Below are positions 12,977-61,237 of a stretch of DNA of 64,000 nucleotides, piece after piece. The stretch lies in the IMG/VR virus record IMGVR_UViG_3300017748_000002, positions 59,333 through 123,332 of that record; one strand, 5' to 3'. The position numbers were made by a program, and so were the translations under genes. Position 1 is the first letter of the stretch. Every line of letters begins with the position of its first letter. Under the pieces are notes generated by a model, which ran no database searches, had not been told where the DNA came from, and saw nothing but the letters and a program-made list of their open reading frames with translations. The stretch comes from a virus.

Positions 12977-13595
12977 AGAACAGCCTTTGTTTCATGGTGA
13001 TGAACGAGATACACTCGGGGTGCAGATTGTTCCGTATTCTATTCGTACTGTTTCAAATTATGCTCAACGAATAGGTGCTGATTATAAGTTTGTCTCAAAT
13101 AGAAAATTTAACCATTTACCAAGTGTACATTCTGAAAAGCTTCAATGTCTTATGGAAACAGGATATGACAAAGTCTTAGCTCTTGACACAGACATAATTA
13201 TTCCACCAGATACAGAGATAGATATATTTAATGAATATCGGCATTCACAGCTTGCTCTTAGAGGTTCGCCAAAACATTTAGGTTTAATGTCACGAATAAA
13301 CGGTGGTGTTGTTTTATGGGATAAACAAACTATTGAGTTAGTCCAACCTATGTTAAACGAACTTCTTCAGTTAAACACAAAAAGAGATTTAATGTGGCAT
13401 GACGAACATTTTATTCAGAGTTGTTGGATGGAATACGATATTGGTGTGACTGGACTCAAATGGGAATGGAATCGAAACGGTGAAGAGTATCATGACTGGA
13501 AACAACCGGCGTACTTTATACACTATGGCGCTGTAACAGAAGCTCGGCTTGCTTTTGATAAAAAACATTGGGATGACAGACTATGCGGATTTTAG
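12948..13595 (+). CDS. GT-A glycosyltransferase-like protein
   Basis: YAQRIGADY, LDTDI (DxD), NGGVV, DE, WN, FIHY. Confidence 0.65.
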   Translation: MKKLIFQFFKEQPLFHGDERDTLGVQIVPYSIRTVSNYAQRIGADYKFVSNRKFNHLPSVHSEKLQCLMETGYDKVLALDTDIIIPPDTEIDIFNEYRHSQLALRGSPKHLGLMSRINGGVVLWDKQTIELVQPMLNELLQLNTKRDLMWHDEHFIQSCWMEYDIGVTGLKWEWNRNGEEYHDWKQPAYFIHYGAVTEARLAFDKKHWDDRLCGF

Positions 13596-17307: not shown

Positions 17308-18173
17308 GCGGAGACAGTAATACAGATTCTACGTATACAGAAAACGTAAAGAACAACATTTTTTCATGGCCACATTCTGTCGCGGACAAAATGGATTGGG
17401 ACTTGCTAAACGTTGCTCAAATGGGACGTTCTAATGAGTCAATAGAGAATAGAGTTTATGACGCTGTTGTAGAGAATCAAGACAGAGATATTGTCGTGAT
17501 GGTTTTATGGTCTCAATCGATCAGGCAATCACCGTTTGATCTTTTTAATATTATATTTACAAACGACAAAAGACAATTCAACGAATTTCAGACTTCTAAA
17601 TTTCTAACAAATTTTCCGGGAATGGATATTGAAAAGTGGGAAGATATTCTTTTTATTGAAAATAATAATTTAAGCTATAATAAATGGATTGAAACAAGAG
17701 AATATTTGCCAAAGTCTGCAGATTATAATCAGCCATATGATTTACAGACTAAACATACGTATATACTAGAACAAATACTTAAATTCAAATTTCAAGATAC
17801 CGATGATGTGTATCATCTTGATGAAAAGATTTTACACTTCAATCTCAGATCTATGAGAAGATTAAAACTTTTTCTTGACAGCTTAGGTATTCGTAGTATA
17901 TTTAAGTCTGGGCTTTCAGTGACTCGTAGCATTCCAGGAATGTTTTCTCCTTGGATTCAAGATCATGATCTAAAGCAAAAAACACTCAATATAAAAAGGC
18001 TAAATAGATTGAATAGTGTTTGTAAAGAAAAGTTAGATTTTGAATTAAGTGATTGGGAAGAAGGATTAATCTGGGCTTTGAGTAAGCACGGTCATGTGAT
18101 GGAATGTAACCATCCAACTCAAACTGGTCATGAAATAATTGCTAAGGAATTTATAAAATGCGCAAACTATTAA
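17286..18173 (+). CDS. SGNH hydrolase-like protein (array member 4)
   Basis: GGDSNT, NVAQMGRSN, CNHPTQTGH. Confidence 0.7.
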   Translation: MRKLLIVGGDSNTDSTYTENVKNNIFSWPHSVADKMDWDLLNVAQMGRSNESIENRVYDAVVENQDRDIVVMVLWSQSIRQSPFDLFNIIFTNDKRQFNEFQTSKFLTNFPGMDIEKWEDILFIENNNLSYNKWIETREYLPKSADYNQPYDLQTKHTYILEQILKFKFQDTDDVYHLDEKILHFNLRSMRRLKLFLDSLGIRSIFKSGLSVTRSIPGMFSPWIQDHDLKQKTLNIKRLNRLNSVCKEKLDFELSDWEEGLIWALSKHGHVMECNHPTQTGHEIIAKEFIKCANY

Positions 18174-18985
18174 TTGTTGGCGGATGTAGTTGGTCTAATC
18201 CGAACGAAGAATGCTATCACGTTGCTGGGATCGATAAGATCTGGCCTGAAATGGTAGCAGAATTTCTTGACATGGATTTAATTAACGTATCAGAAGGTGG
18301 AGCTGGAAACGATTATATTTACGGTCAGACATTAGATGCTATCGAAGAAAACAAAAATCGTGATATTGTCGTTATGGCTCTTTGGTCGCAGGCAATCCGA
18401 ATGGTGCCATTTGATTTACCGATCGGTCAATTTACATTTGGTGTTCATACTCCAATGTTGGTACCGCCTATTGGTCCGCTCAAAGAAGATATTCAAGAAA
18501 GATTTAGAGATCTTTTTTGGTTACACGTTTATGATCAGGATGCTCCGATGCATCTTCAATTAACAAAGGAAGAATTCTGGACAAAAATTGCGAATGTTTC
18601 TCTTCGAAATATTTACATGCTTGATCACTACTGTAAAACAAGAGATATTCCTATTCTTCATCACCGTGCTCTTCATACTCTTGCTGGCATTGAATGGTTA
18701 TTGAAAAAGCAAATCAATTTTCAATTGAGAAAACAAGTCTTTGATGCTTGCCAAAACAATCAATATTATCAGAAGATTCAAAAATTTAAAAATATCGTAG
18801 GACATCCAAATTTCTTTGAACCGGGTTCTAGTTGTTTTGATCTCTACGAAAAATATTACATTACACCACAAGAAAAACACCCAAATACACAAGGGCATAT
18901 GTTAATTGCTAACAGTTTTGTAAACAAATATATAGAACTATACGAAGAAAGATCTACATCAGAACCGAGTTTTGTCTATGAATGA
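18158..18985 (+). CDS. SGNH hydrolase-like protein (array member 5)
   Basis: GGCSWS, NVSEGGAGN, EKHPNTQGH. Confidence 0.7.
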   Translation: MRKLLIVGGCSWSNPNEECYHVAGIDKIWPEMVAEFLDMDLINVSEGGAGNDYIYGQTLDAIEENKNRDIVVMALWSQAIRMVPFDLPIGQFTFGVHTPMLVPPIGPLKEDIQERFRDLFWLHVYDQDAPMHLQLTKEEFWTKIANVSLRNIYMLDHYCKTRDIPILHHRALHTLAGIEWLLKKQINFQLRKQVFDACQNNQYYQKIQKFKNIVGHPNFFEPGSSCFDLYEKYYITPQEKHPNTQGHMLIANSFVNKYIELYEERSTSEPSFVYE

Positions 18986-20078
18986 TTTGAAATGGAGTCA
19001 ATACGACTTCACAAAAATACCTTTTAATGATATTGTAAGTGTCGGCCAACGCACGATGATGTATCGTGACTTGTTTACAGTGAGTTGGTTGCTCGGTCGA
19101 TTCTGTAATTATTCTTGTTCATATTGTTGGCCATACGCATCAAGTCGTGAAAAAGACCATAGGCCAATTGATTTGATTCTTATGACAATTGACGAGATTA
19201 AAAGACAATCTCGCAAGAATGAATATAATTCTTTTCATTTTAGTTTTAGTGGCGGTGAACCTACGTTCCATCCACAATATTTAGAAATTATGGAATACCT
19301 TGCTGATGATGTTCCTAACTGTAACTATCATTCAGTCCATATGACTTCTAATATTTCTCGTAAGATGAAGTGGTTTGAAGAATATGCTAAAATATGTTCG
19401 CGGTTTAATCGATCAAGTATCACAGCTTCATGCCATAGAGAACATGTTAATACCCAAGAAAAAGTTGCAGAGTTCGCTGACAAGCTTGAATACTGCCAAT
19501 CACAAGACATCCAAGTAACTATTAACCAAGTGATGCTACCAGACAAATTTGAGCAGTGTTGGGAAGACGCACTATATTTCCACGAAAGAGGTATCAATGT
19601 TACTCTTAAACCTCAGTCTGATCCTACTGCCAGTTTTATTGTTGATGGATATACTGAATCAATGCTTGAAAAATTACGTAACGGCATGCCTCAAAGAGGA
19701 TTTACCGACATCAAAAAACAAATTACCAGACCGAGACCGAACGTCGAATTAGATCTTCGTTATGAAACAACTGGTGTTCCACAACATATGCAAGTTGAAC
19801 TTGAAGATTCAAAAGGACAAAAATATTATATGGATCAAGCTGAACGGTTCAACACATTCGAGTTTAATAAATTTGAAGGTTGGAATTGTGAATCCGGATA
19901 TAGATCTATTATAATCAGAGAACCGGACGGATCTATAAAAAGATCTTACTCGTGTAATGATGAGCCACTTGGTTATATTCAATCTGGGTTTAAATTATTC
20001 GATAAACCAATGCCGTGTATCACAAAAACATGTGTTTCTTCTGCAGATTCTAAGATCCCAAAGAAGAAAATTGTATAA
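18978..20078 (+). CDS. Radical SAM protein with C-terminal twitch-like domain
   Basis: CNYSCSYC, GGEPT, FEGWNCESG..SC...PC...C; same architecture as 1146-2096. Confidence 0.9.
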   Translation: MNDLKWSQYDFTKIPFNDIVSVGQRTMMYRDLFTVSWLLGRFCNYSCSYCWPYASSREKDHRPIDLILMTIDEIKRQSRKNEYNSFHFSFSGGEPTFHPQYLEIMEYLADDVPNCNYHSVHMTSNISRKMKWFEEYAKICSRFNRSSITASCHREHVNTQEKVAEFADKLEYCQSQDIQVTINQVMLPDKFEQCWEDALYFHERGINVTLKPQSDPTASFIVDGYTESMLEKLRNGMPQRGFTDIKKQITRPRPNVELDLRYETTGVPQHMQVELEDSKGQKYYMDQAERFNTFEFNKFEGWNCESGYRSIIIREPDGSIKRSYSCNDEPLGYIQSGFKLFDKPMPCITKTCVSSADSKIPKKKIV

Positions 20079-49390: not shown

Positions 49391-51880
49391 ATGTCGTTTT
49401 ATACTAACATCTGCCGTTATGGCAACACTATTCTGTACCGTGGTTACAATCAACACGGTAAGCGCATCTATAAACGCGATACAGAATTTAAACCAGTTTT
49501 CTTTACAGAAACAAAAACTCTTACTGAATGGACGTCACTAGACGGTAAGCGTATTGCGCCTATTGAAATGGCCAGCATGCGTGATGCGAAAGAATGGCTA
49601 GAATCAAACCGTGATGTTGCTGGTCGTAAGATCTATGGCAACGCAAAGTATCTTCAACAATACGTCACTCAACGTTTTCCACGCGATATTGAATTCAAGC
49701 GTGAATGTATTGATGTTGGTACCTTCGATATTGAAACAGAATATGACGATGGATTTCCGCATCCAGCTGAAGCATCTCAAAGAATTCTTTCAATTACTTA
49801 CAAGTCTAGTAAGTCAAAACTATATCACGTCTGGGGTTATGGCGATTTCGATACTGAGAAGAGTCTTATTCAACCTGTTCGCTATTATCGGTGCCGAGAC
49901 GAAGCAAGTCTCCTCGGTAAGTTCCTTGACTTCTGGTCCGATCCTGATAAGACTCCAGACGTAATTACTGGTTGGAATATTCGTTTCTTTGATGTTCCAT
50001 ACCTTATTAATCGTACTGCTAAAATTCTTAGTATCGACTCTTGTAAAGCGTTCTCTCCTTGGAGAATGGTTGATCATCGAGAAATAACTCGCCGTGGTCG
50101 GACAGAAATCGCTTATGATATTAAAGGTATCGAACAGCTTGATTATATGGAACTCTTCCAAAAGTTTGGATATTCCTATGGCGCTCAAGAATCATATGCT
50201 TTGAATCATATTGCCTACGTCGTTCTTGGTGAAAAGAAGTTATCATACGAAGAAGCCGGCTCTTTGAAAAATCTCTACAAACAAGACTTTCAAAAGTACA
50301 TTGACTATAACATGAAAGACGTTGAGTTGGTTGAACGCATCGAAGACAAGATGGGTTTGATTACTTTGGCTATGACTATGGCGTATAAGGGTGGTGTGAA
50401 CTATTCTGATACGTTTGGTGTAACGAATATTTGGGAATCGATCATCTATCGTAAACTCAATTCTGAAAAACGTGTACCACCGGTATGGACTCCTGATTTT
50501 GGCAAGTCTAAGTTTGCTGGCGGTTACGTCAAAGAACCGCATGTTGGCGCTCATGACTGGGTAGTATCGTTTGATTTGAATTCACTTTATCCTAACATTA
50601 TTGTTCAGTGGAATATGAGTCCTGAGACTCTTATCAATCAAGCTGAAATATCTGGTGTTGAATATTACATGAATTCTGATCCATACACCGGTGAAGGTGC
50701 TCTTGCTGCAAATGGTTCTACCTATCGAAAGAATATCGATGGTGTGATTCCCTCTATCATTGTTGACTACTATGATGATCGTAAGTCAATTAAGAAAATG
50801 ATGTTGGCAGCAGAATCTCAATATCAAGAAGAAAAAACAACTCAACTTGAGAAAGAAATCAATAAGCTTAATAACCAGCAAATGGCAATTAAGATTCTGA
50901 TGAATTCTCTTTATGGCGCTCTCGGCAATCAATACTTCAAATACTTCGACCTCCGACTTGCCGAGGGCGTTACTCTTACCGGTCAATTGGCTATTCAATG
51001 GGCTGAACGCAATGTCAATAAGTATATGAATGAAATACTTGAGACAACCGATATTGACTATGTTATCGCTATCGATACTGATTCGCTTTATGTTAACTTT
51101 GGTCCAATGGTTGAAAAGTTCAAACCAGAAAATCCAGTCAAATTCCTTGACATGGTTTGTAAGACAAAGTTTGAAACTGAAATCGGTAAATGCTATGAAA
51201 AACTCTTTCATAATATGAGTTGTTACAAACCACGTATGGAAATGGGTCGTGAAGTAATTGCTGATCGTGGTATATGGACCGCAAAGAAACGATACATATT
51301 AAATGTACACAACTCTGAAGGAGTACAGTACGCTGAACCAAAACTCAAAATCATGGGTATTGAAGCCATCAAGAGTTCTACTCCGGAAGTTTGCCGCGAT
51401 AAGTTCAAAGAGATCTTCAAGATCCTAATATCTGGATCTGAAGATGACGCTCAGGCTTATATCAAAAACTTCAAACAAGAGTTTAAATCGCTCCCTGCAG
51501 AAAAGGTCGCGTTCCCTAGGTCGGTCTCGAATATTACTGACTGGTCAGATCGAAAGTCTATATACAAAAAAGGATCTCCTATTCACGTTCGAGGTAGCCT
51601 TCTCTACAACAAGTTATGTAAGGACAACAAACTTACAAAGAAGTATGAGCTGATTCAAAATGCGAATCGAATCAAATTCTGCTACATGAAGATGCCAAAT
51701 CCAATTCATGAGAATGTTGTAGCTTTTCCAGAAGTACTTCCGCCTGAATTGAAACTCGATCACTATATAGATTATGATTTACAGTTTGATAAAACTTTCG
51801 TTGAACCACTCAAACTTATTCTTGACGCGATTGGTTGGAATCCAGAACCAGTCGCAAGTTTAGATGAATTTTTCGCATAA
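49391..51880 (+). CDS. gp43: Family B DNA polymerase gp43
   Basis: FDIET, SFDLNSLYP, KILMNSLYGALG, DTDS, KKRY, C-terminal clamp motif SLDEFF. Confidence 0.98.
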   Translation: MSFYTNICRYGNTILYRGYNQHGKRIYKRDTEFKPVFFTETKTLTEWTSLDGKRIAPIEMASMRDAKEWLESNRDVAGRKIYGNAKYLQQYVTQRFPRDIEFKRECIDVGTFDIETEYDDGFPHPAEASQRILSITYKSSKSKLYHVWGYGDFDTEKSLIQPVRYYRCRDEASLLGKFLDFWSDPDKTPDVITGWNIRFFDVPYLINRTAKILSIDSCKAFSPWRMVDHREITRRGRTEIAYDIKGIEQLDYMELFQKFGYSYGAQESYALNHIAYVVLGEKKLSYEEAGSLKNLYKQDFQKYIDYNMKDVELVERIEDKMGLITLAMTMAYKGGVNYSDTFGVTNIWESIIYRKLNSEKRVPPVWTPDFGKSKFAGGYVKEPHVGAHDWVVSFDLNSLYPNIIVQWNMSPETLINQAEISGVEYYMNSDPYTGEGALAANGSTYRKNIDGVIPSIIVDYYDDRKSIKKMMLAAESQYQEEKTTQLEKEINKLNNQQMAIKILMNSLYGALGNQYFKYFDLRLAEGVTLTGQLAIQWAERNVNKYMNEILETTDIDYVIAIDTDSLYVNFGPMVEKFKPENPVKFLDMVCKTKFETEIGKCYEKLFHNMSCYKPRMEMGREVIADRGIWTAKKRYILNVHNSEGVQYAEPKLKIMGIEAIKSSTPEVCRDKFKEIFKILISGSEDDAQAYIKNFKQEFKSLPAEKVAFPRSVSNITDWSDRKSIYKKGSPIHVRGSLLYNKLCKDNKLTKKYELIQNANRIKFCYMKMPNPIHENVVAFPEVLPPELKLDHYIDYDLQFDKTFVEPLKLILDAIGWNPEPVASLDEFFA

Positions 51881-51919: not shown

Positions 51920-52333
51920 ATGAATAAAAAATGGCACGAAGATATCTGGGACATGCACTACAAGTTTGGTGTACACCAGTGGATTATGGAAAACATTGAC
52001 GACAAAGAAAAGATGTCAAAGTTTCTAGAATTTAGAATGAAGTTTCTTGATGAAGAGCTTACTGAAACAAAGAACGCTGTAGAGAATAAAGATCCACAAG
52101 AAATTGTTGATGGCCTCATCGACTTATGTGTTGTGGCAATCGGTACTCTTGATGCTTTTGGCGTAGATGCTCAAGTAGCTTGGGATCAAGTTCACAACGC
52201 AAATATGGCCAAGAATCCGGGTGTAAAAGAAACACGTCCGAATCCACTTGGTCTACCAGATTTGATTAAACCTGAAGGATGGACTGGACCTGAACATGAC
52301 GACAACACCGGGCATTTCCCTCACGCTCTTTAA
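51920..52333 (+). CDS. MazG-like all-alpha NTP pyrophosphohydrolase
   Basis: EEL.E, EIVDGLIDL, VH.ANMAK, KPEGW..P. Confidence 0.75.
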   Translation: MNKKWHEDIWDMHYKFGVHQWIMENIDDKEKMSKFLEFRMKFLDEELTETKNAVENKDPQEIVDGLIDLCVVAIGTLDAFGVDAQVAWDQVHNANMAKNPGVKETRPNPLGLPDLIKPEGWTGPEHDDNTGHFPHAL

Positions 52334-53742: not shown

Positions 53743-54048
53743 ATGCAAGAAGATTATATTATGTCAGGTGCTCTTTATGATCATATCATGAAGCAGCGTA
53801 GAGAAGCTGAAGAATTCAGCAAGCAACCTGGGTGCTTCATGGGGATGATGCCTCATCCGTCTGAGACCAAGTATTGGTCGCAGCGTGTTCCTACTGGTAC
53901 TCTTATTGAGTACAAGCGTATTGAGCTAGAAGAAACAGCTTACTACATTACCGCAGATAAGACAAGTAAGTCTTATGCTCGGACTCTTGATTTTGAAGCG
54001 TGGTCCGATGAAAAGATCGAGGCCCATATCGAAAGGATGTGTGCGTAA
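53743..54048 (+). CDS. Hypothetical protein
   Basis: GAGGAG RBS, downstream of a promoter. Confidence 0.6.
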   Translation: MQEDYIMSGALYDHIMKQRREAEEFSKQPGCFMGMMPHPSETKYWSQRVPTGTLIEYKRIELEETAYYITADKTSKSYARTLDFEAWSDEKIEAHIERMCA

Positions 54049-54395
54049 TGAAATACTCACTCAAAGTTCTGCAAAAAGCTGCAGAAATTCAAACTAAAAA
54101 ATCTTCTGATTATCAGAATCCAAACTCACGGATCAAACAAGCAGACTACTATTGTCGTGGTTGTTCTACTATCCTTGACACTATGCATGCCAAAGTTCTT
54201 CGTATGCAGTCTGTTATGGAAGCTATGGAATCTGATCCAAACTATGGTCAAAACTTTGAATCGCTCGAAGATTCATGTATCGATCTGATCAACTATGCTT
54301 CTTTCTTTGCCTCATATCTTGCTGGTGAAATGGAAGGTCAAAAGCCTGATCGTGATTTTTTAAATCGTCCTAGGAATACTACAGATGAAAATTAA
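54048..54395 (+). CDS. Nucleotide-modification-associated (Nmad-like) all-alpha protein
   Basis: KKSSDY, K..R, ESLEDS..DLINY. Confidence 0.55.
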   Translation: MKYSLKVLQKAAEIQTKKSSDYQNPNSRIKQADYYCRGCSTILDTMHAKVLRMQSVMEAMESDPNYGQNFESLEDSCIDLINYASFFASYLAGEMEGQKPDRDFLNRPRNTTDEN

Positions 54396-54726
54396 TATTA
54401 ATGATATTGGTGGTGAAGTCGTCAAAGAAGACGATCGTTATAAAGTAGTTGACAATAAGACACTAAACAATCTTGTAGTAAGTAGTACTGACTTATACGC
54501 TTTTAAGGCTACTAGTGGCCATGCTCACGTTGGTCAAGAAGAAGTTTACAATTTTGTCAAAGGTTCTGGTAAGATGGAAATGATTGACTTGAATGGAAAA
54601 CACCACGACCAAGTTGTAAAAGAAGGCGATGTTGTTTTGATTCCAGATGGTTGGTTTCACCGAGTTCATGCTGGTCCACATGGTTGTTACTTTGTTTGTG
54701 TCTTTGACGGAAAGCGCAGTCACTAA
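54385..54726 (+). CDS. Cupin-domain protein
   Basis: GHAH..QEE.Y....G.G, GD...IP.G.FHRV. Confidence 0.8.
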   Translation: MKININDIGGEVVKEDDRYKVVDNKTLNNLVVSSTDLYAFKATSGHAHVGQEEVYNFVKGSGKMEMIDLNGKHHDQVVKEGDVVLIPDGWFHRVHAGPHGCYFVCVFDGKRSH

Positions 54727-54932
54727 TGTCTGAACTCAAAGAAAAAATTAATCAACGAATGGATATTCTCCAAAATTGGATGGAGAAAAATTATCACTTA
54801 AAACGACCAGAAGTAGTTTCAAGTCATATTGAATCAGTAAGTAAATTTTGGTCTATTTTATCTGAAGAAGATCGTGACTATATACAGTGTAGTCAACATG
54901 CAATTGAAGATCAAAGGGAATGGATCGTATGA
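54726..54932 (+). CDS. Hypothetical protein
   Basis: Translationally coupled ORF. Confidence 0.55.
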   Translation: MSELKEKINQRMDILQNWMEKNYHLKRPEVVSSHIESVSKFWSILSEEDRDYIQCSQHAIEDQREWIV

Positions 54933-55351
54933 AAATAGGATTAACTGCATCAACGTTTGATCTCCTCCACGCAGGTCATGTAGCCATGTTGAGAGAAGCA
55001 AAATCTCAATGTGACTACTTGATCTGTGCTCTTCAGGTAGATCCGACTTTTGATAGAGCTACAAAGAATGCTCCAGTACAAAGTATTGTCGAAAGGCAAG
55101 CTCAATTGGCTGCAATTAAATATGTCGATGAAGTCATTATTTATTGTACAGAAGCTGATTTACTTGATATAATAAACATGTATCCAATTAATGTGCGGAT
55201 ACTTGGCGAAGAGTATCGTCAAAAAGATTTTACTGGTAAAGACGAATGTCGTAACCGTGGAATCGAATTATACTTTAATAAACGAGACCACCGGTTCTCG
55301 TCTAGTGATTTGAGAGAAAGAGTAAAAGATGCGACAGCTAACCGTAAGTGA
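54929..55351 (+). CDS. TagD-like cytidylyltransferase
   Basis: TFDLLHAGH, ER......KYVDE, SSS.LR. Confidence 0.85.
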   Translation: MKIGLTASTFDLLHAGHVAMLREAKSQCDYLICALQVDPTFDRATKNAPVQSIVERQAQLAAIKYVDEVIIYCTEADLLDIINMYPINVRILGEEYRQKDFTGKDECRNRGIELYFNKRDHRFSSSDLRERVKDATANRK

Positions 55352-56009
55352 TATTCGTAAATTTTTTATTGGAGAACTAAATGATGAATCATACACCACC
55401 GACAAAACTGGACAAAAGACAATTGAACTGCTTGGCGCTTCATTTCTTGCAGACGAACCAGCCATTTTTGGTACTCCCAACCAAGAGTACATTGATCGAG
55501 AAATCGATTGGTATTGCAGTGGTAGTACTAATATCAATGACATTTATGGTGATGAGCGCGAACCTCCTGAAGCATGGAAATATGCTGCCAATAAACATGG
55601 AGAAATCAATTCTAACTATGGTCGACTGATTTTCGACGATATATATTATAGGCAGTACGAAAACGTTCTTTGCGAATTGGCAGATACCAATGATACTACA
55701 AGACGTGCTACAATGGTTTACAACCGACCAAGCATCTGGGCAGAGTACCAAGATGGTAGTAAAAACGATTTTATTTGTACTAATGCTGTCACTTATTACA
55801 TTCGCAATGGTGAACTCCAAGCTGTTGTCCAGATGCGATCCAACGATGTCGTGTTCGGATACAAGAATGATTATGCTTGGCAGCGTTATGTAATGGGATT
55901 AATTTGCCAAGATCTTGGTGGTGGTAGAGATACACTCAAACCGGGCAACTTAATCTGGCAAGTACAAAATTTACATGTCTATGAAAGGCATTTCCACCTT
56001 GTCAAATAA
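55329..56009 (+). CDS. gp42: dCMP hydroxymethylase-like (T4 gp42, thymidylate synthase fold)
   Basis: INSNYG, DFICTN, MRSNDVVFGYKNDYAWQ, LHVYERHF; Asp at the dCMP-specificity position. Confidence 0.85.
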   Translation: MRQLTVSDIRKFFIGELNDESYTTDKTGQKTIELLGASFLADEPAIFGTPNQEYIDREIDWYCSGSTNINDIYGDEREPPEAWKYAANKHGEINSNYGRLIFDDIYYRQYENVLCELADTNDTTRRATMVYNRPSIWAEYQDGSKNDFICTNAVTYYIRNGELQAVVQMRSNDVVFGYKNDYAWQRYVMGLICQDLGGGRDTLKPGNLIWQVQNLHVYERHFHLVK

Positions 56010-56436
56010 ATGGGATGAAAGATATTTAGACTTAGCCGCGGGTGTTGCTGGCTGGTCTAAAGACCCGTCACGGAAGATCGGAGCCGTGGCAGTTGGATCA
56101 AAGGGCAGTGTTCTTGCTCAAGGGTTCAACGGGTTTCCTCGTGGGATTAGTGATTCACCTAATCGTTATGAAGATCGCACGAGAAAATACGAACTGGTAG
56201 TCCACGCAGAAATGAATGTAATTTATAATGCGACTTATAATGGTGTCTCTCTTGACGGTGCTACATTATACGTGCACGGGCTACCAGTTTGTTCCGATTG
56301 TGCCAAAGGGATTATTCAAGTTGGCATAAAACGAGTGGTCATGAAAGACCAAGAGATACCAGATCTCTGGCAACAATCATGGACTAAAACAGAAGAAATG
56401 TTTAACGAAGCAGGAGTCGACTATGAGTTCATATGA
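55975..56436 (+). CDS. cd: dCMP deaminase
   Basis: SKDPS..IGA, G.NG, HAE.N, PVCSDC; start uncertain (TTG 55999 possible). Confidence 0.9.
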   Translation: MSMKGISTLSNKWDERYLDLAAGVAGWSKDPSRKIGAVAVGSKGSVLAQGFNGFPRGISDSPNRYEDRTRKYELVVHAEMNVIYNATYNGVSLDGATLYVHGLPVCSDCAKGIIQVGIKRVVMKDQEIPDLWQQSWTKTEEMFNEAGVDYEFI

Positions 56437-56632
56437 AGCTTATATGGTGAAGCGTCTTAGAGAAGAAGACGAAAAGGCAGGTATTACTATTCAACATAGT
56501 AATTTACGATTGACTAAAGAAGTTGAAGAATTAAAAGCTAGAATTAAACAACTTGAAACTGATATGGCATATCAAACAAAACCATTTGCTACTAGTCCAG
56601 AAGAACAACGAATATACGATTTGAAAACATGA
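56423..56632 (+). CDS. Hypothetical coiled-coil protein
   Basis: GGAG RBS, heptad pattern. Confidence 0.5.
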   Translation: MSSYEAYMVKRLREEDEKAGITIQHSNLRLTKEVEELKARIKQLETDMAYQTKPFATSPEEQRIYDLKT

Positions 56633-57000
56633 CACACGTATTAGTTATTGGACACAGCCCAAGCCCTTCTTCTACCAAGAGGAAGGGCAATCCTACATTA
56701 AACCGGCTAAACCGGTGGCTCGATGCATGTGATGTAAGAATATACAGCTTCACGAATCTTGCTCACTCGAGCGCCGGTTCTCTCAAAAAGGCTGAAATAT
56801 GTGATACTATGTTTCACGATATCTTTAAGAATTATACTAAAGTAATAACTTTAGGTAAAGAAGTGAAACAATATACTAATAAAATGGGCTACGATTTTTA
56901 TGAGCTTCCGCATCCAAGTCCGCTAAACCGTAATCTCAACGATAAAAAGTACGAAGAAGACGTAATTAAAGGTTTACAAAGCTTCATACATATGGTATAA
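56629..57000 (+). CDS. Compact uracil-DNA glycosylase-superfamily protein
   Basis: VIGHSP, FTNL, VITLG, LPHPSPLN. Confidence 0.65.
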   Translation: MTHVLVIGHSPSPSSTKRKGNPTLNRLNRWLDACDVRIYSFTNLAHSSAGSLKKAEICDTMFHDIFKNYTKVITLGKEVKQYTNKMGYDFYELPHPSPLNRNLNDKKYEEDVIKGLQSFIHMV

Positions 57001-57001
57001 T
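56973..57001 (+). promoter_or_regulatory. Sigma70-like promoter
   Basis: TTTACA-17 nt-TATAAT. Confidence 0.65.
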
Positions 57002-57028
57002 ATAAACACAATTGAGGAATAGTATATT

Positions 57029-58120
57029 ATGAAAAAAATCTTAGTAACTGGGATGAACCACGAGCAAACACGCTATGATGGTTATCTCTCAAAACGCATT
57101 GGAGTGATCCTTTGCCATTACGGTCTTATTCGTTGTCTTGAAGATATGGACTTCGAAGTAACTCAAAAACATACTCAACCCGGTGAAGATCTTTCTGAAT
57201 ACGATCATGTGATTGTATATCTACACAGTCCTAATGGTTTTTGTCAACGTATCTTTGACGGGCTATGGGCACTCAACCAAAGACCGGATGCTATTCTAGC
57301 TTTTGACGATTGGCAAGTCAAAGATATTTTCAATGGTGTAATTGGTTATGGTAAAGCTCTGAAGGAACGTCCTGAGTCTGCTTATCGTGGTCATATCCTT
57401 GATCAATATCATACAGTCAAAGATGTAGATCAGGTAAAGAAGTATCACCAAGCTTACATTGACGCAATCGATATGGTTGCTGAAAAGAAGAATAAAGTTT
57501 TGATGTGTGCTTTTGCTGGTGGTGATCTCAGTAAGTTGATGGATTATCCACAAGAACTGGTTTATAGTTTCAACCCTAATCCATACCACTTAAATCGTTC
57601 TCATGAAAATAATTATGGAATGGAAGCTGGTGGTCTAGACGATTTCTTTGGTGGACCTGAAGCTCCGTCTCCAGAGAAGAAATCAAAAGCGTGGATCTTT
57701 AGTTCATTGGTACAAACTAAAACACGTAAGTGGTTAGACAAACAAGAATTGAATTGGGATGTACGTATCTACGGTGCTCAACGCGGAGCATTCAAAACCG
57801 AACGCCTGACCGAAGATAAAATGGTACAAGAATACGAAACTACTTGGGGTAACCTGATGCCGGGATACGATCATTCAGGATCTGGCTGGTGGAGAACACG
57901 AGTATTACAATGCGCTGAAGCTCGATCAATTACTATTTGTGATCCTGTTGAAGGTAAAGTTTATGGTGAAGAGTTCCTTATTACTCCAGCCGAAGTTGAA
58001 GCAATGGATGATAGTCAGCTATGGAAGAAAGCAAACGCACAGCGTGAAAACTTCCTAGATAATCACCCACTAAATAAGGATGTCACCAAACAAGAAATTA
58101 TGGAGGTCTTAAATGGCTAA
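57029..58120 (+). CDS. Putative DNA glycosyltransferase (GT-B-like)
   Basis: KILVTG, DLSEYD.VIV, AFDDWQ, GSGWWR.R..Q; recalled resemblance to the RB69 ORF003c-type DNA sugar transferase; context beside gp42 and sugar enzymes. Confidence 0.55.
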   Translation: MKKILVTGMNHEQTRYDGYLSKRIGVILCHYGLIRCLEDMDFEVTQKHTQPGEDLSEYDHVIVYLHSPNGFCQRIFDGLWALNQRPDAILAFDDWQVKDIFNGVIGYGKALKERPESAYRGHILDQYHTVKDVDQVKKYHQAYIDAIDMVAEKKNKVLMCAFAGGDLSKLMDYPQELVYSFNPNPYHLNRSHENNYGMEAGGLDDFFGGPEAPSPEKKSKAWIFSSLVQTKTRKWLDKQELNWDVRIYGAQRGAFKTERLTEDKMVQEYETTWGNLMPGYDHSGSGWWRTRVLQCAEARSITICDPVEGKVYGEEFLITPAEVEAMDDSQLWKKANAQRENFLDNHPLNKDVTKQEIMEVLNG

Positions 58121-59069
58121 AATTTGTATCACCGGTGGAGCAGGCTTTATTGCATTCCATCTCACACATAAACTAATAGAACTAGGTCACGAAGTTGTTG
58201 GCTTTGATAATTACAACGATTATTACGATCCAGGGCTAAAACATACTCGAGCAAATATTCTTCACGATCGATTCGGCGTTATCATGGAAAACGTAGATCT
58301 ATTGGATCGCAAGAAGCTTACTCAGTGGATGAAAACAAATAGTCCAGATGTTGTAATGCATTTAGCAGCATATGCCGGAGTACGTCATTCGCTTGATTAT
58401 CCGGATGACTATATTTCAAACAATATTGTCGGTACACATAATCTTATCGAAGCGTGTAATGATGCTCGTATAACTAAAATCACATATGCCTCAACCTCGT
58501 GTGTAATGGCTGATAATCCTCTCCCATGGAATGAAGACGAAAAGATTGGAGTAGCTAAGAATCCATACGGTTATTCTAAAGCTACCAATGAAGCACAGAT
58601 GATCTCTTCTAAAATTGATTCAACTATTGGCTTACGTTTCTTTACAGTGTATGGTCCTTGGGGCCGGCCTGATATGGCGCTGTTTGACTTTACTAAAAAC
58701 ATTGTTGCCGGCAATCCAATCCAACTTTTCAACTATGGTGATATGGTTCGTGATTTTACGTACGTCGAAGATATTGTTCAAGGCATCGTAATTATTATCA
58801 ATCGTCTTTTAGATAATCAAGACATTAACGAAATCTATAATATTGGTTTTGGTGATCAAATTCAGCTGGTTGATTTTGTAGAACATATTGAGAAGAACTT
58901 AGATCGTACAGCTATTCGTGAATTAGTTGAAATGCATCCTGCCGACACTCAAGCAACATGGTCTGATACGACTAAGTTACAAGCACTCGGTTACAAGCCA
59001 ACTACAAATATTGCGGAAGGTGTAGCTAAATTTATTGAATGGTACAAGGAATATTATAATGTCAATTAA
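58113..59069 (+). CDS. NAD-dependent epimerase, UDP-glucuronate 4-epimerase-like
   Basis: TGGAGFI, HLAA.AGVR.S, YGYSK, RFFTVYGPWGRPDMA. Confidence 0.85.
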   Translation: MAKICITGGAGFIAFHLTHKLIELGHEVVGFDNYNDYYDPGLKHTRANILHDRFGVIMENVDLLDRKKLTQWMKTNSPDVVMHLAAYAGVRHSLDYPDDYISNNIVGTHNLIEACNDARITKITYASTSCVMADNPLPWNEDEKIGVAKNPYGYSKATNEAQMISSKIDSTIGLRFFTVYGPWGRPDMALFDFTKNIVAGNPIQLFNYGDMVRDFTYVEDIVQGIVIIINRLLDNQDINEIYNIGFGDQIQLVDFVEHIEKNLDRTAIRELVEMHPADTQATWSDTTKLQALGYKPTTNIAEGVAKFIEWYKEYYNVN

Positions 59070-59883
59070 TATCGCAATCATTGGTCATGGTTACGTAGGT
59101 AAAGCTGTTGACCACGGCTTTTCCACAAGTCAAGTTGAGAAGTATATTGTAGATCCACTTTATGGAACTACACTCGATCAACTGAAAGGTAAAGTTCGAT
59201 TAGATGCTGCCTTTGTTGCAGTACCAACTCCCTTTGGTTCAGACGGTGAAATCGACGCTTCAATCGTAAAAGATGTTGTACGTCAACTAGAACATTTTAG
59301 TTGTCCGATTATTATTAAGTCAACCACAACTCCAGATATTGTAGATGAACTCTATCTTGAAAACGAACGTGTAGTTTACAACCCAGAGTTTTTGACTGAA
59401 AAGAATGCTCTTGACGATTTCATTAATCCACCAATGCACGTACTTGGTGGTAAGAGAAAGTATTGTGAACGTGTTCTTGATCTATATGAAAACTATTCGC
59501 AATGTAAACCATGTCAAGTTTTCTATATGACAGCCAAAGAAGCTTCATTCGTTAAATACGGAATCAACTCTTACCTCGCTACTAAAGTTCTATGGTTTAA
59601 TCAATTCAAAGATATTGTTGAAGACTGGGAAGGCAAGTATAATGTGATTGTGAATGCGATTGGTAGTGATCCACGTATTGGCCATAGTCATACTCAGGTT
59701 CCAGGGCCAGACGGACGTAAAGGTTTTGGCGGAGCTTGTTTCCCAAAAGATACTAACGCTTTCTCTACCTTTTCAAAAGGAGACTTTGGCGTCCTTGACG
59801 AAGTAATCAAACATAATAACGTATATAGAAAATCTTACGATCTTGATGAACGTGAAAAAGAACAGAAAGTAAATTATGGTTAA
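59059..59883 (+). CDS. UDP-glucose/GDP-mannose dehydrogenase family protein
   Basis: GHGYVG, VPTP, IKST, NPEFL, D.RIG, GFGGACFPKD. Confidence 0.85.
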   Translation: MSINIAIIGHGYVGKAVDHGFSTSQVEKYIVDPLYGTTLDQLKGKVRLDAAFVAVPTPFGSDGEIDASIVKDVVRQLEHFSCPIIIKSTTTPDIVDELYLENERVVYNPEFLTEKNALDDFINPPMHVLGGKRKYCERVLDLYENYSQCKPCQVFYMTAKEASFVKYGINSYLATKVLWFNQFKDIVEDWEGKYNVIVNAIGSDPRIGHSHTQVPGPDGRKGFGGACFPKDTNAFSTFSKGDFGVLDEVIKHNNVYRKSYDLDEREKEQKVNYG

Positions 59884-61066
59884 TTATGCCAGTATAGTAC
59901 CACTTATTGGTGGTGAAACAATTGCTATGCAGAATGTCGTTGGAAATAAACCCGAGTACATTCTGTCGTACGAAGGTTTTGAAAGTAATGATAAACACCT
60001 ATTGGAATATTATAAAAACGAAGTTCCCTATCATCTTATCAAAGACGGTGAGCTTCCTGATGTTAATAGTGTTGATATTGTTAACACTGTTTGCCCTTGT
60101 GCTGGCTTGTCTAGTCTCAGTCCTTCAAGTAATTCTGAGTCTGCTACTAATGATTGGATGCGTATGTCTGCAGAGTATATACTCGATAGCGTCAAACCAA
60201 AAGTGTTTTGGGGAGAAAACGCACCAAGACTTGCTAGCAAGATGGGAGAGCCAGTTGTCAAAGATTTACGACAAATTGGCCAAAAATACGGATATACTTT
60301 TTCAATATTTAAAACAAAAAGTCTCTTGCATGGACTTTCTCAAGTAAGAGATAGAGCTTTTTATTTTTTCTGGAAAGGTGATAAGGTTCCAGTATTTGAA
60401 TATATAAATCGTACGCACCAAACAATCGAAGATGCCATTCGATCTGTCAACAGAAATCCAGCAGATCCAATGGACATTCTTGCCAATGAGGCAAAGCCAA
60501 CTGATAACGCATACTATAAGTATGTTCTTCAATTGTTGAATACAACTCATCAAAAGTTTGCTGCTAGTATCGAAAAAACTACGAATCCTATGGAATGGAT
60601 CTATGCTAATGATTCATTCTTAAAAGCAGCCGATTGGATGGATGCTAATGGATATGAAAGAGAAGCCGCTAAGTGCCGACGTAAGTTTGACAAGTTAGCT
60701 TCAGGCGGTAATATTATGTGGCACAATATTGAAATTCCAAAAGACCACATCGGTGCTTTTGTAGGTCATCGACCAACATCAATAGCGCATCCAGATGAAG
60801 ATCGCTTTTTGACTATTAGAGAATGTCTATCACTAATGAAAATGCCAGATGATTTTATTCTCCAAGGTGGTCGTAAAAATCTCAATCACATTTGTCAAAA
60901 TGTACCTGTCACCACTGCTGAAGACATGGCCTCTGAAGTAGTCAAGTTTGTAGAAGGTCGTTCTGATAACAGGCTCATCGAGACAAACTATTTAATTCAA
61001 GATAACAAAAATAATTCATGGTGGTCTGAAAAAAGTAGTGTACAACTCGATGATTTTATGGTATAA
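59876..61066 (+). CDS. DNA cytosine-C5 methyltransferase-like protein
   Basis: CPCAGLS (IV), GENAP (VI), Q.R.R (VIII), R.LT.RE (IX); motif I divergent. Confidence 0.7.
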   Translation: MVNYASIVPLIGGETIAMQNVVGNKPEYILSYEGFESNDKHLLEYYKNEVPYHLIKDGELPDVNSVDIVNTVCPCAGLSSLSPSSNSESATNDWMRMSAEYILDSVKPKVFWGENAPRLASKMGEPVVKDLRQIGQKYGYTFSIFKTKSLLHGLSQVRDRAFYFFWKGDKVPVFEYINRTHQTIEDAIRSVNRNPADPMDILANEAKPTDNAYYKYVLQLLNTTHQKFAASIEKTTNPMEWIYANDSFLKAADWMDANGYEREAAKCRRKFDKLASGGNIMWHNIEIPKDHIGAFVGHRPTSIAHPDEDRFLTIRECLSLMKMPDDFILQGGRKNLNHICQNVPVTTAEDMASEVVKFVEGRSDNRLIETNYLIQDNKNNSWWSEKSSVQLDDFMV

Positions 61067-61067
61067 T
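61039..61067 (+). promoter_or_regulatory. Sigma70-like promoter
   Basis: TGTACA-17 nt-TATAAT. Confidence 0.5.
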
Positions 61068-61069
61068 AT

Positions 61070-61237
61070 ATGGATCAGCTAAAGGAAAGACTAGAAATAG
61101 TCTTAAAAGAAATAAGTCAGGTGATGCAAGAACGTAAAGATCAAGTTGAAAGTATACGTGATCAAATCACTCGGCTAGAAAATGACAACGAAGATCTTGA
61201 AAAAAAGATCAGCGAACTTGTAAGAGATTATATATGA
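61070..61237 (+). CDS. Small coiled-coil protein
   Basis: Not in the ORF track: 55 aa MDQLKERLEIVLKEISQ...ELVRDYI. Confidence 0.55.
   Translation: MDQLKERLEIVLKEISQVMQERKDQVESIRDQITRLENDNEDLEKKISELVRDYI

Follow-up and report, generated by a model that had tools for sequence, protein, structure and literature searches.

The uncultured marine T4-like phage analyzed here very probably attaches a sugar to hydroxymethylcytosine (hmC) by means of a GT-B enzyme. Judged from its genes, the sugar is most likely galacturonic acid made by the phage itself. The best reading of the locus is a DNA predicted to contain galacturonosyl- or glucuronosyl-hmC, for which we estimate a probability of about 0.5. 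If this is true, one negative charge would be added per modified cytosine, and the modification would blind restriction enzymes, CRISPR nucleases and type IV enzymes specific for glucosyl-hmC. Read from sequence only, the cassette would represent a variant on the known concealment of phage DNA from bacterial nucleases.

Organization of the Putative Modification Locus

The analyzed DNA (the window) comprises 64,000 nucleotides, positions 59,333 to 123,332 of the IMG/VR record IMGVR_UViG_3300017748_000002, a 123-kb record that is 73% complete. An earlier note had proposed uronic acid hypermodification of cytosine on the basis of four genes, encoding a gp42-like enzyme, a glycosyltransferase, an epimerase and a dehydrogenase. 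All four were found on the plus strand where it had placed them. The features of the locus are as follows.

51920..52333, plus strand: MazG/PRA-PH-like pyrophosphatase, candidate dCTPase with a putative gp56 role (PF01503, E 6e-11)
54048..54395, plus strand: conserved 115-aa module protein without Pfam family
54385..54726, plus strand: small cupin protein (PF00190, E 9.4e-7)
54920..55351, plus strand: cytidylyltransferase-like nucleotidyltransferase, 143 aa (PF01467, E 5.7e-12)
55329..56009, plus strand: gp42-type dCMP hydroxymethylase (PF00303, E 2.6e-14; T4 1b49, E 1.5e-67)
55975..56436, plus strand: dCMP deaminase (PF00383, E 5.9e-19; phrog_174, E 2.5e-44)
56629..57000, plus strand: small UDG-superfamily-like protein (PF03167, E 3.4e-4; 21.1 bits, under the 24.3-bit cut-off)
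56973..57001, plus strand: sigma-70-like extended -10 promoter match (consensus only; 11 of 12 consensus positions plus TG)
57029..58120, plus strand: GT-B glycosyltransferase, 363 aa, candidate hmC-DNA glycosyltransferase (PHROG 14998, E 2.1e-36)
58113..59069, plus strand: UDP-glucuronate 4-epimerase-like SDR (PF01370, E 2.1e-51)
59059..59883 (ORF from 59035), plus strand: two-domain sugar 6-dehydrogenase, "mini-Ugd" (PF03721 and PF00984)
59876..61066, plus strand: C5-cytosine DNA methyltransferase-like enzyme (PF00145, E 2.4e-19)

Successive genes overlap by 8 to 11 bases at 58113/58120, 59059/59069 and 59876/59883, and the packed unit thereby extends past the dehydrogenase gene into the methyltransferase-like gene. 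Upstream, the start of the gp42 gene is overlapped by the cytidylyltransferase-like gene. The dehydrogenase likely starts at the ATG at 59059 and not at the TTG at 59035, because the resulting 274 residues match the length of its relatives. The gene order pol ... 42 - GT ... uvsX - 40-like - 41 is identical in T4, RB3 and the window, and the transferase occupies the slot of T4 b-gt, between gene 42 and uvsX.

The promoter match consists of TTTACA-17-TATAAT with an upstream TG and is followed by GAGGA and the transferase ATG at 57029. Consensus scoring ranked it as the best match between 51.5 and 62 kb. The exact pattern occurs five times in the window versus 0.16 expected. The earlier proposal of a promoter-led unit holds. 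Another copy is located directly before the DNA polymerase gene. The late motif TATAAATA was not detected between 47 and 64 kb; its 10 copies are all located at 5.8-46.7 kb. Early expression of the predicted hypermodification module would best explain a promoter type shared with the polymerase gene and the lack of the late motif nearby.

The gp42-Type Enzyme and the Nucleotide Pool

The best solved-structure match of the 55329-56009 protein was the T4 dCMP hydroxymethylase 1b49, and its sequence is 50% identical to T-even gp42. The enzyme retains the catalytic Cys as well as two Asp residues, the first specifying cytosine and the second diagnostic of hydroxymethylases. Thus, a gp42-like dCMP-modifying enzyme is indeed present. 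The second Asp is replaced by Asn in every tested 5-hydroxy-dCMP synthase (PMC13326640, section 28), as is also the case in the 5-hydroxy-type enzymes of Thanatos and MX01. Since this ThyA homologue has Asp at the ThyA-169 position, it should hydroxymethylate and not hydroxylate. Consequently, 5-hydroxycytosine, which had been considered as an alternative base, was rejected.

Many of 80 related loci have a homologue of the MazG-like pyrophosphatase upstream of the transferase, at a distance of 1.5-8.3 kb. According to a passage of the MetaGPA paper (PMC8670742), PF01503 and ThyA homologues occur together on modified contigs. By close homology to T4, the pyrophosphatase and the gp42-type enzyme would convert the dCTP/dCMP pool to 5-hydroxymethyl-dCMP, so that hmC would be incorporated at replication.

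The Glycosyltransferase

No Pfam or NCBIfam family was found for the 57029-58120 protein, and PHROG 14998, which it matches, carries the label "unknown function". The AF2 model (pLDDT 92.8) revealed a GT-B fold. T4 BGT was the top Foldseek match (E 2.4e-8) and also the best solved match in VIA-align, with a Z of 19.0, an rmsd of 3.6 and 301 aligned residues; the next families reached 16.4. The profile comparison with BGT suggested in the earlier note gave no sequence link (hhalign probability 3.4%), and a search of the transferase profile against PDB sequences yielded nothing.

Among 80 related IMG/VR loci, gp42 lies at most 3.5 kb upstream of the transferase in 75, the other five having less than 1.5 kb of upstream sequence. 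The C5-methyltransferase-like gene follows downstream in 78, and the remaining two loci are cut. Thus, wherever the sequence of a related locus extends far enough, both genes flank the transferase. In cultured phages, homologues of the transferase are found beside Tet/JBP, 5-hydroxycytosine and gp42 genes: homologues adjoin a Tet/JBP oxygenase in phage C48C1, one lies within an arabinose-5-phosphate-isomerase/nucleotidyltransferase cluster in Morganella phage Rgz1, and one adjoins a Glf gene in the gp42-bearing Aeromonas phage 25. The assignment as a DNA glycosyltransferase, already proposed in the earlier note, is now supported by fold, position and gene association. On these grounds the enzyme would transfer the sugar of a nucleotide-sugar to the hydroxymethyl group on DNA.

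The Putative Sugar Donor Genes

The donor would be provided by the next two genes, which overlap and share the promoter of the transferase. The two-domain dehydrogenase would oxidize a glucose nucleotide to its glucuronate form, and the 4-epimerase would convert UDP-GlcA to UDP-GalA. The product would be galacturonosyl-hmC, or glucuronosyl-hmC if the transferase accepts the product of the dehydrogenase. Donor supply is the weakest link of this pathway.

The best solved matches of the SDR were 5u4q (1.5e-72) and the UDP-glucuronate 4-epimerase UGAepi of B. cereus, 6zl6 (5.8e-45). Thr126, Ser127, Tyr149, Lys153, Thr178 and Arg185 of UGAepi are retained, including the carboxylate-binding residues; the role of Arg185 is described in PMC12338863. 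The earlier assignment as a UDP-glucuronate 4-epimerase therefore stands, and the complete UGAepi-type active site calls for UDP-GlcA as substrate.

The UDP-glucose-dehydrogenase-like gene was only partly as expected. PF03721 and PF00984, two of the three Ugd domains, are present, and 27 relatives show no variation in the catalytic motifs. PF03720, the UDP-binding domain of every solved Ugd, is missing from the gene, and the profile search did not detect it anywhere in the 123-kb record. Correspondingly, alignment of the model with Cj1441, a chain of 390 residues, covers residues 1-319 of that chain (Z 24.2). The short form is general, as the best 120 relatives are all 251-300 aa long. Because the UDP-binding domain is missing, the substrate is uncertain, and UDP-GlcA synthesis by "Ugd" is something we infer and do not read off.

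Sugar Cassettes in Related Phages and Alternative Explanations

Next to 79 full-length transferases, window included, the neighbouring slot is empty in 37 cases, occupied by a UDP-galactopyranose mutase in 31 (PF03275, E 2.3e-50) and by the epimerase in 11. In a transferase tree of 57 distinct rows each cassette type forms one side of a well-supported branch, with two cassette changes in all versus a shuffled mean of 24.6. This association supports the argument that the transferase receives its donor from the sugar genes; the perfect split could also mirror three phage lineages.

Less probably, a neutral sugar, for example glucose from host UDP-glucose, is placed on hmC, and the epimerase, mini-Ugd and cytidylyltransferase-like genes form a separate auxiliary set that shares by chance the plastic region ahead of uvsX. 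Such a set would make uronic acid donors to remodel the envelope or LPS of the host, to build a virion glycan or to control the host's sugar-nucleotide pool. Since 37 of the 79 loci lack any cassette, the transferase family can use a host donor. Marine T4-like phages commonly carry the set, and many loci have it with no gp42 nearby; in some, neither gp42 nor a PHROG-14998 transferase was found within 10 kb. A 177.5-kb record (86% complete) contains the set and two TAGT genes, with no PF00303 match, hence no ThyA homologue, and no A1-type transferase. A search for Tet/JBP in this record and in that of the window gave no match, but neither did the controls. In L010, L012 and L013, members of the window's transferase clade, the dehydrogenase lies 8-9 kb from the transferase. 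Furthermore, in part of a pelagimyophage paper (PMC7029224), rfaE and UDP-glucose 6-dehydrogenase are interpreted as host-takeover genes related to LPS. Against a separate set, the pair in the window overlaps the transferase gene under the same early-type promoter, away from the late motif. Elsewhere in the 73% complete record, a search covering PF00534, PF00535 and PF20691 detected no transferase of the GT1, GT2 or TAGT type as a potential user of the donor. In L010 to L013 the epimerase stays with the transferase and not with the dehydrogenase. The epimerase adjoins mini-Ugd in 45 of 80 mini-Ugd loci. Even relatives that lack gp42 have the pair behind a TAGT- or GT4-type transferase, in the region of the replication genes. 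Of the 37 loci with at least 1 kb of sequence, 16 have an AGT-family gene immediately before the pair, 5 a TAGT gene and 3 a GT4-like gene; RB3's T2/T6-type hmC transferase is a TAGT member. The pair belongs to this phage group generally and also occurs where no gp42 was detected, which weakens the uronic acid reading. Of that reading as first put forward, gp42, the glycosyltransferase, the epimerase and the donor logic hold, whereas hydroxycytosine and an undescribed base (see below) do not, and UDP-GlcA synthesis by the Ugd-like enzyme is less certain.

An acidic sugar could also arise by a non-textbook route, which appears unlikely. Here, the dehydrogenase would act not on UDP-glucose but on an activated sugar made by the cytidylyltransferase, or on glucose already bound to hmC in DNA. 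The missing PF03720, the model spanning just the first two Ugd domains, and the uniformly short relatives with their invariant catalytic motifs would fit this route. The cytidylyltransferase-like gene is present in 36 of the 80 mini-Ugd loci, in many directly adjoining the dehydrogenase. However, the intact UGAepi-type site of the epimerase demands UDP-GlcA, and the cytidylyltransferase-like profile is nearest to phospho-alcohol enzymes (ethanolamine-phosphate cytidylyltransferase 3elb, 2.8e-23; TagD 1coz, 7.8e-17), not to those of sugar 1-phosphates. We also know of no Ugd-family enzyme that acts on a polymer-bound sugar. Very improbable is a decarboxylation of UDP-GlcA by the SDR to UDP-xylose or UDP-arabinose, giving pentosyl-hmC similar to the RB69-type pentose-decorated cytosines. 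UDP-xylose synthases do belong to the SDR superfamily, UGAepi variants that lose carboxylate stabilization become primitive decarboxylases (PMC12338863), and L010 and L011 possess a second SDR. The window has a single SDR, which fits UGAepi far better than human UXS (5.8e-45 versus just 1.9e-19), and its conserved Arg185 and Thr/Ser network hold the carboxylate and disfavour decarboxylation.

Comparison with Known Systems

The T-even pathway to glucosyl-hmC employs gp56, gp42, Cd and alpha- and beta-glucosyltransferase in T4, and a second transferase of the T2/T6 type. The window shares with it a MazG-like pyrophosphatase, a dCMP deaminase, a gp42 with an identical active-site signature and a GT-B transferase in the same slot whose nearest solved fold is BGT. 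In contrast, no relation of the window's transferase to BGT or AGT could be detected by sequence, and a C5-methyltransferase-like gene is always attached to it. T4 draws on host UDP-glucose, whereas the phage of the window encodes its own sugar-nucleotide genes.

The earlier note knew of no description of the acidic sugar base. However, hexuronic-acid-5hmC (433 amu) has already been made, in E. coli with epimerase and glycosyltransferase of contig 57, and also with the glycosyltransferase of contig 91 alone, according to parts of a preprint on metavirome C5-MT/5mYOX (TET)/GT pathways (bioRxiv 10.1101/2023.12.21.572611). Its subclass II has a partner epimerase, and the GT-B enzyme of contig 53 is said to have an "architecture shared with T4 beta-GT". 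By this description, a DNA glycosyltransferase, a sugar epimerase and a C5-MT are clustered as in the window. There, 5hmC is formed post-replicatively by MT and TET on DNA, while the window points to the nucleotide level and a gp42-type enzyme, and additionally encodes a dehydrogenase.

In the arabinosyl-5-hydroxycytosine systems of RB69, DLP3 and Thanatos and the galactosyl/glucosyl-5-hydroxycytosine system of Rhizobium phage RL38J1, a ThyA homologue likewise makes the hydroxylated nucleotide and is clustered with phage sugar-nucleotide enzymes and GT-B transferases (PMC13326640). RL38J1 uses UDP-galactopyranose mutase (PMC13326640), a gene for which is present in 31 sister loci of the window, and the PHROG-14998 homologue of Rgz1 lies in an equivalent cluster. 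The window enzyme differs by its Asp at ThyA-169, and the sugar genes are those for uronic acids, not arabinose.

DNA of Bacillus phage SP-15 contains glucose and phosphoglucuronolactone on 5-dihydroxypentyluracil, as stated in a portion of PMC5977210. A uronic acid in virion DNA would be common to SP-15 and, as predicted, the window. The same portion places a predicted UDP-glucose dehydrogenase in the modification cluster with a phosphomannomutase and a nucleotidyltransferase. SP-15 is unrelated to the phage of the window, its base is a uracil derivative, and its uronate is attached via a phosphodiester and not by a glycosidic bond to hmC.

Additional Module Genes

A homologue of the 54048..54395 protein is found directly upstream of gp42 in most related loci. 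In relatives, a cupin gene is flanked by a phosphomannomutase-like and the cytidylyltransferase-like gene, and homologues of the UDG-superfamily-like protein separate the deaminase gene from the transferase gene in many related loci. Among 80 distinct relatives of the C5-methyltransferase-like protein (40-83% identity), conservation of motifs I, IV (Pro-Cys), VI, VIII and X is at least 98%.

Organization of the modification locus

The record, of which the window forms the right-hand 64 kb, comprises 123,332 bases, is 73% complete according to CheckV and derives from a T4-like phage with nearly all genes on the + strand. A packed run of modification genes was found between the DNA polymerase gene and uvsX/gp41.

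Genes of the modification locus (window coordinates)
49391-51880: DNA polymerase gene
51920-52333: MazG/PRA-PH-like pyrophosphatase (PF01503, 6e-11)
between the pyrophosphatase and cupin genes: several small conserved ORFs
54385-54726: cupin
54920-55351: cytidylyltransferase-like protein
55329-56009: ThyA homologue
55975-56436: dCMP deaminase
56629-57000: UDG-superfamily-like 123-aa protein (weak match, E 3.4e-4, below the Pfam cut-off)
57029-58120: 363-aa transferase
58113-59069: SDR
59059-59883: two-domain sugar dehydrogenase
59876-61066: C5-DNA-methyltransferase-like protein
61437 onward: uvsX/gp41

The earlier note had described a gp42-like gene followed by genes for a putative DNA glycosyltransferase, an epimerase and a dehydrogenase. 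This gene observation was borne out, with corrections, and the genes are read here as parts of the packed run. The genes for the transferase, the SDR, the dehydrogenase and the C5-methyltransferase-like protein overlap one another by 8-11 bases. Within the region, the closest fit to a sigma-70-like promoter is TTTACA-17-TATAAT plus TG (56973-57001), which is followed by GAGGA and then by the ATG of the transferase gene. This exact pattern occurs five times in the window versus 0.16 expected, and one copy is located directly upstream of the DNA polymerase gene. The late-type motif TATAAATA was found in ten copies, every one of them on the + strand, the first at 5.8 kb and the last at 46.7 kb; the 47-64 kb portion of the window contains no copy. 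The count itself lacks significance, since 7 of 100 shuffled sequences contained at least as many. A megablast search with positions 55000-61100 against cultured phages yielded no near-identical DNA. The UDG-superfamily-like gene is kept between the deaminase and transferase genes in many related loci.

The gp42-type enzyme

The ThyA homologue matched PF00303 (E 2.6e-14) and, over nearly its full length (residues 4-225), the solved T4 dCMP hydroxymethylase 1b49 (E 1.5e-67). It shares 50% identity with the T-even gp42 of phage RB3. In the alignment both the catalytic Cys and the cytosine-specifying Asp, which corresponds to Asn177 of E. coli ThyA, are identical; these residues are named Cys148 and Asp179 in T4 (title of Graves et al.; PMC13326640, section 28). 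According to Lee et al., all 5-hydroxy-dCMP synthases tested have Asn where E. coli ThyA has Asp169, and Thanatos is named there as a tested 5-hydroxy producer (PMC13326640). At this position the window enzyme and RB3 gp42 possess Asp (S-N-D), while Thanatos-1 (S-E-N) and MX01 (S-Q-N) possess Asn. Since the Asp is kept, 5-hydroxymethyl-dCMP is the expected product of the window enzyme. The 5-hydroxycytosine route, which the earlier note had left open as an option, fails on this Asp signature and was rejected.

Fold and family of the transferase

No Pfam or NCBIfam family was assigned to the transferase, which belongs to PHROG 14998, annotated as "unknown function". Among 1469 candidates, 483 relatives were obtained at E ≤0.001, and none of the 120 relatives listed contained a Pfam domain. 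A structure model built on 39 relatives reached a pLDDT of 92.8 and a pTM of 0.90. Using this model as the Foldseek query, T4 beta-glucosyltransferase (BGT, 1qkj) ranked first with an E value of 2.4e-8. VIA-align superimposed the model on BGT 1nzd with Z 19.0 and an rmsd of 3.6 over 301 aligned residues at 14% identity; T4 alpha-glucosyltransferase (AGT), glycogen synthase and SenB followed with Z 16.3-16.4. Judged by its predicted structure, the transferase is a GT-B enzyme, and its nearest solved shapes are both T4 DNA glucosyltransferases.

Sequence methods did not detect this relationship. PF09198 (GT63) gave no match to the window transferase but scored 9.4e-98 with T4 BGT itself, and a search of the transferase profile against all PDB sequences returned neither BGT nor any transferase. 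The profile comparison of 57029-58120 with BGT, which had been proposed in the earlier note, gave a probability of only 3.4% (hhalign, 39-row profile). Consequently, membership in the BGT family at the sequence level was rejected, and the link to BGT is one of fold and position only.

Evidence for DNA as the target

The gene order in T4 is 43, imm.1, imm, 42, b-gt, segA, uvsX, 40, 41, and that in RB3 is 42, transferase (the second one of RB3), uvsX, 40, 41. The window follows the same order with the transferase in the b-gt slot and with deaminase, UDG-like, sugar and methyltransferase-like genes inserted. The transferase loci fetched from IMG/VR, the best 80 of 235 relatives, showed the same association. 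In 75 of them a gp42 homologue is located at most 3.5 kb upstream of the transferase, and the remaining five extend less than 1.5 kb upstream. A C5-methyltransferase-like gene lies at most 3.6 kb downstream in 78 of the 80; the other two are cut.

A tblastn search of 50,697 phage records detected transferase homologues in 42. That of phage C48C1 has a Tet/JBP oxygenase gene (PF12851, 3.3e-17) on one side and a UDP-galactopyranose mutase gene on the other, and the homologue of Aeromonas phage 25, a phage with gp42, adjoins a UDP-galactopyranose mutase gene. Morganella phage Rgz1 encodes a full-length homologue (hhalign 99.6%) flanked by genes for an arabinose-5-phosphate isomerase and a nucleotidyltransferase, only a few genes away from a ThyA homologue; this cluster resembles the arabinosylation clusters described in PMC13326640. 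Three independent lines, namely position, association in uncultured phages and association in named phages, point to DNA as the probable target of the transferase. The occurrence of the family beside three different pyrimidine-hydroxylating routes is hard to explain except by a putative DNA base glycosyltransferase.

The epimerase and the two-domain dehydrogenase

Among solved structures the SDR matched 5u4q best (1.5e-72), an entry labelled a dehydratase by its depositors which we take to be a Klebsiella uronate epimerase. The UDP-glucuronate 4-epimerase group of B. cereus followed (6zl6/6zld, 5.8e-45). Weaker matches were obtained with MoeE5 (1.2e-31), GalE chains (about 1e-23) and human UDP-xylose synthase (UXS, 1.9e-19), and the NCBIfam search gave no equivalog above cut-off. 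Counted along the alignment with 6zl6, the SDR has kept Thr126, Ser127, Tyr149, Lys153, Thr178 and Arg185, while Ser128 is replaced by Cys; for the single Thr and Ser residues we assume the B. cereus numbering of the epimerase UGAepi. In UGAepi, Arg185 is described as holding the carboxylate of UDP-GalA, with a carboxylate-holding role also for the Thr/Ser network, and the enzyme is reported to turn into a decarboxylase when this stabilisation is lacking (PMC12338863). By the signature of the kept carboxylate-holding residues and by the match scores, the SDR is a predicted UDP-GlcA/UDP-GalA epimerase and not a xylose synthase. A pentose route via UDP-xylose synthase was rejected for this window on the same grounds. 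Within the transferase clade of the window, L010 (12082-13050) and L011 have another SDR gene behind the first. This additional gene, whose product shares 38% identity with the epimerase, hints at further sugar tailoring in those phages.

The dehydrogenase contains an NAD-binding domain (PF03721, 2.6e-15) and a central domain (PF00984, 4.9e-13). The motifs Gly-Gly-x-Cys-x-x-Lys-Asp, Asn-Pro-Glu-Phe and Lys...Asn are invariant in 27 relatives and presumably represent the catalytic residues of UDP-glucose dehydrogenase (Ugd). The C-terminal UDP-binding domain PF03720 is absent from the protein and from the whole 123-kb record, and it was found in 13 of 14 control genomes. A model of the protein (pLDDT 87.6) aligned to residues 1-319 of the 390 of Cj1441 (7kws, Z 24.2) and to residues 1-334 of the 402 of the S. 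pyogenes enzyme (1dli, Z 23.3). The best 120 of 2330 relatives are all 251-300 aa in length and possess only the PF03721 and PF00984 domains. The missing domain is therefore not accidental, and because of its absence we classify the protein, termed mini-Ugd, as working like Ugd and not as a Ugd member. The mini-Ugd proteins constitute a large family in marine metagenomes (2330 matches, with relatives P0121-P0240).

Association of the sugar genes with the transferase

In the slot beside the transferase, 79 full-length loci including the window carry nothing (37), a UDP-galactopyranose mutase (31) or the epimerase (11). The mutase was identified by PF03275 (E 2.3e-50), and some mutase loci have a second SDR upstream. 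Mutase genes are located at 11101-12096 in L021, at 4893-5957 in L002 and at 7017-8027 in L001, and also occur in 30 further loci; together these represent 31 uncultured loci, Aeromonas phage 25 and C48C1. From this arrangement, the DNA of cultured Aeromonas T4-like phages is predicted to carry galactofuranosyl groups. In a maximum likelihood tree of 57 distinct transferases a single well-supported branch separates each cassette type from the rest (100/95, 96/96 and 100/100), and the cassette changes twice on the tree versus a mean of 24.6 in shuffled data. This clean split may merely reflect three phage lineages.

The dehydrogenase was followed through a separate set of loci, the best 80 of at least 592 mini-Ugd relatives. 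An epimerase (≥50% identity) adjoins the mini-Ugd in 45 of them. Directly upstream of the 37 pairs with at least 1 kb of upstream sequence we found a gene of the AGT family in 16 (PF11440, 1.4e-54), of the TAGT family in five and a GT4-like gene in three; the T2/T6-type hydroxymethylcytosine transferase of RB3 is a TAGT member (1.8e-9). The AGT-family arrangement reads gp42, cd, AGT-like, epimerase, dehydrogenase, C5-methyltransferase-like, uvsX. Together with PHROG 14998, the pair thus follows four unrelated transferase types, and it is always located in the replication-gene region. Sister phages with an AGT-family gene in the same slot are L089-L094, L111, L114-L117, L122, L123, L127, L132, L141 and L166.

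Several findings count against a supply of the transferase by these genes and bear on the rival explanation that the sugar genes serve a separate purpose. The PHROG 14998 transferase occurs in one of the 80 mini-Ugd loci and gp42 is within reach in 16. In many loci the order is pol, ..., dehydrogenase, epimerase, cytidylyltransferase-like, uvsX, and gp42 is missing from it. The record G001 (177.5 kb, 86% complete) holds the pair with the cytidylyltransferase-like gene and two TAGT genes, and it contains neither a PF00303 match nor a transferase of the window's type; its Tet/JBP search gave no match, but the controls gave none either. In L010, L012 and L013, which belong to the window's transferase clade, the epimerase adjoins the transferase while the dehydrogenase and cytidylyltransferase-like genes are 8-9 kb away. 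A study of pelagimyophages reads rfaE and UDP-glucose 6-dehydrogenase as LPS-related (PMC7029224). In favour of a supply of the transferase, a second glycosyltransferase able to use a uronate was looked for in the record (73% complete) with PF00534, PF00535 and PF20691, and these searches were empty. We assign a probability of about 0.5 to a uronic acid on the hydroxymethylcytosine of the phage DNA, and we regard a separate purpose of the sugar genes as rather improbable.

Relation to known systems and implications

Coating hydroxymethylcytosine with sugar is the classic means by which phages protect their DNA from restriction enzymes and CRISPR nucleases, and type IV restriction enzymes in turn attack the sugar-coated base. 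The earlier note knew of no description of an acidic sugar on cytosine. This view has to be revised, since, according to the preprint [quoted passage not shown], metavirome pathways rebuilt in E. coli attached sugar acids of both the uronic (HexA) and the ulosonic type to cytosine (10.1101/2023.12.21.572611). A hexuronic-acid product of 433 amu is described there for the epimerase plus glycosyltransferase of contig 57 and for the glycosyltransferase of contig 91 alone, and most "subclass II" transferases needed the partner epimerase. About 28% of the GT-B pathways are given as ThyS-associated, often with deaminase or methyltransferase genes nearby (same preprint). The window shares with the MT/5mYOX/GT subclass II, as defined in that source, a glycosyltransferase adjoining a sugar epimerase and a C5-methyltransferase in the cluster. 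It would differ in the origin of 5hmC, which a 5mYOX/TET dioxygenase makes in subclass II, whereas the window has a gp42-type enzyme. The PF12851 (5mYOX/TET) search gave no match in the record (73% complete) and none in the controls. SP-15 DNA is reported to carry phosphoglucuronolactone on a modified uracil, and the candidate cluster of this phage to encode a UDP-glucose dehydrogenase (PMC5977210). In the literature searched we found uronosyl-hydroxymethylcytosine in rebuilt pathways only, with no report from a natural virion, and no report of a gp42-based uronic-acid cassette.

A broader joint reading is tentative, and we consider it unlikely to hold in all its parts. The virion DNA of this phage clade would carry galacturonosyl-hydroxymethylcytosine at most cytosines, produced from a self-sufficient early operon. 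The dehydrogenase would represent a new two-domain class without the canonical UDP-binding domain, and the linked C5-methyltransferase-like enzyme would modify escaping cytosines. Marine and freshwater T4-like phages would swap the cassette (none, UDP-galactofuranose or UDP-galacturonate) beside a co-diversifying BGT-fold transferase, leading to lineage-specific "DNA serotypes". If the uronic-acid reading holds, the DNA of abundant ocean phages would bear an acidic sugar. Each modified cytosine would thereby gain one negative charge, which would affect packaging of the DNA, evasion of nucleases and bias in virome sequencing. The BGT-fold transferase family, always locked between gp42 and the C5-methyltransferase-like gene with exchangeable donor cassettes alongside, offers a natural enzyme set for the evolution of donor specificity in DNA glycosyltransferases and for new glyco-DNA tools.

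Accompanying genes

The C5-methyltransferase-like protein matched PF00145 (2.4e-19). In 80 distinct relatives of 40-83% identity, the motifs which we take to be I, IV (Pro-Cys), VI (Glu-Asn), VIII (Gln-x-Arg-x-Arg) and X are at least 98% conserved. No other gene accompanies gp42 and the transferase as constantly as the one encoding this protein; in the mini-Ugd loci it occurs with the gp42-type arrangement but not with the gp42-less TAGT/GT4 arrangements. This is puzzling, since C5 of hydroxymethylcytosine is already occupied and yet the gene is kept; the simplest idea is that the enzyme would methylate cytosines that escape replacement. A CmoX enzyme is recognised by a Ser-Pro-Pro-Cys motif and by the presence of CmoA in the same genome (PMC12783734). 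Motif IV of the window protein is Cys-Pro-Cys-Ala, TIGR00740 (CmoA) had no match in the record, and no CmoX chain was among the solved-structure matches at E ≤0.001. DNA cytosine C5-carboxymethylation of the CmoX type was rejected for lack of both the motif and CmoA in the record.

The closest matches to the cytidylyltransferase-like protein are the cytidylyltransferases for ethanolamine phosphate and glycerol 3-phosphate. The gene for this protein accompanies the dehydrogenase in 36 of the 80 mini-Ugd loci, and some relatives add a phosphomannomutase-like gene and a cupin to the two. A complex prediction with the dehydrogenase, made to see if the protein might bind there in place of the absent UDP-binding domain (score 0.00, mark 0.32), counts neither for nor against binding. 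In gp42-less relatives the phosphomannomutase-like gene (PF03332, 2.1e-31) and the cupin lie upstream of the cytidylyltransferase-like gene (3897-4637 in L097; 3368-3727 in L103), a set that looks like a putative small sugar-activation pathway. PF03332 had no match in the window, although the cupin and cytidylyltransferase-like genes are present there.

Ten proteins were sampled from another part of the window, 1212-20078. No glycosyltransferase was among them, and eight matched radical SAM PF04055, so this island contains radical-SAM paralogues in an unusually long series.
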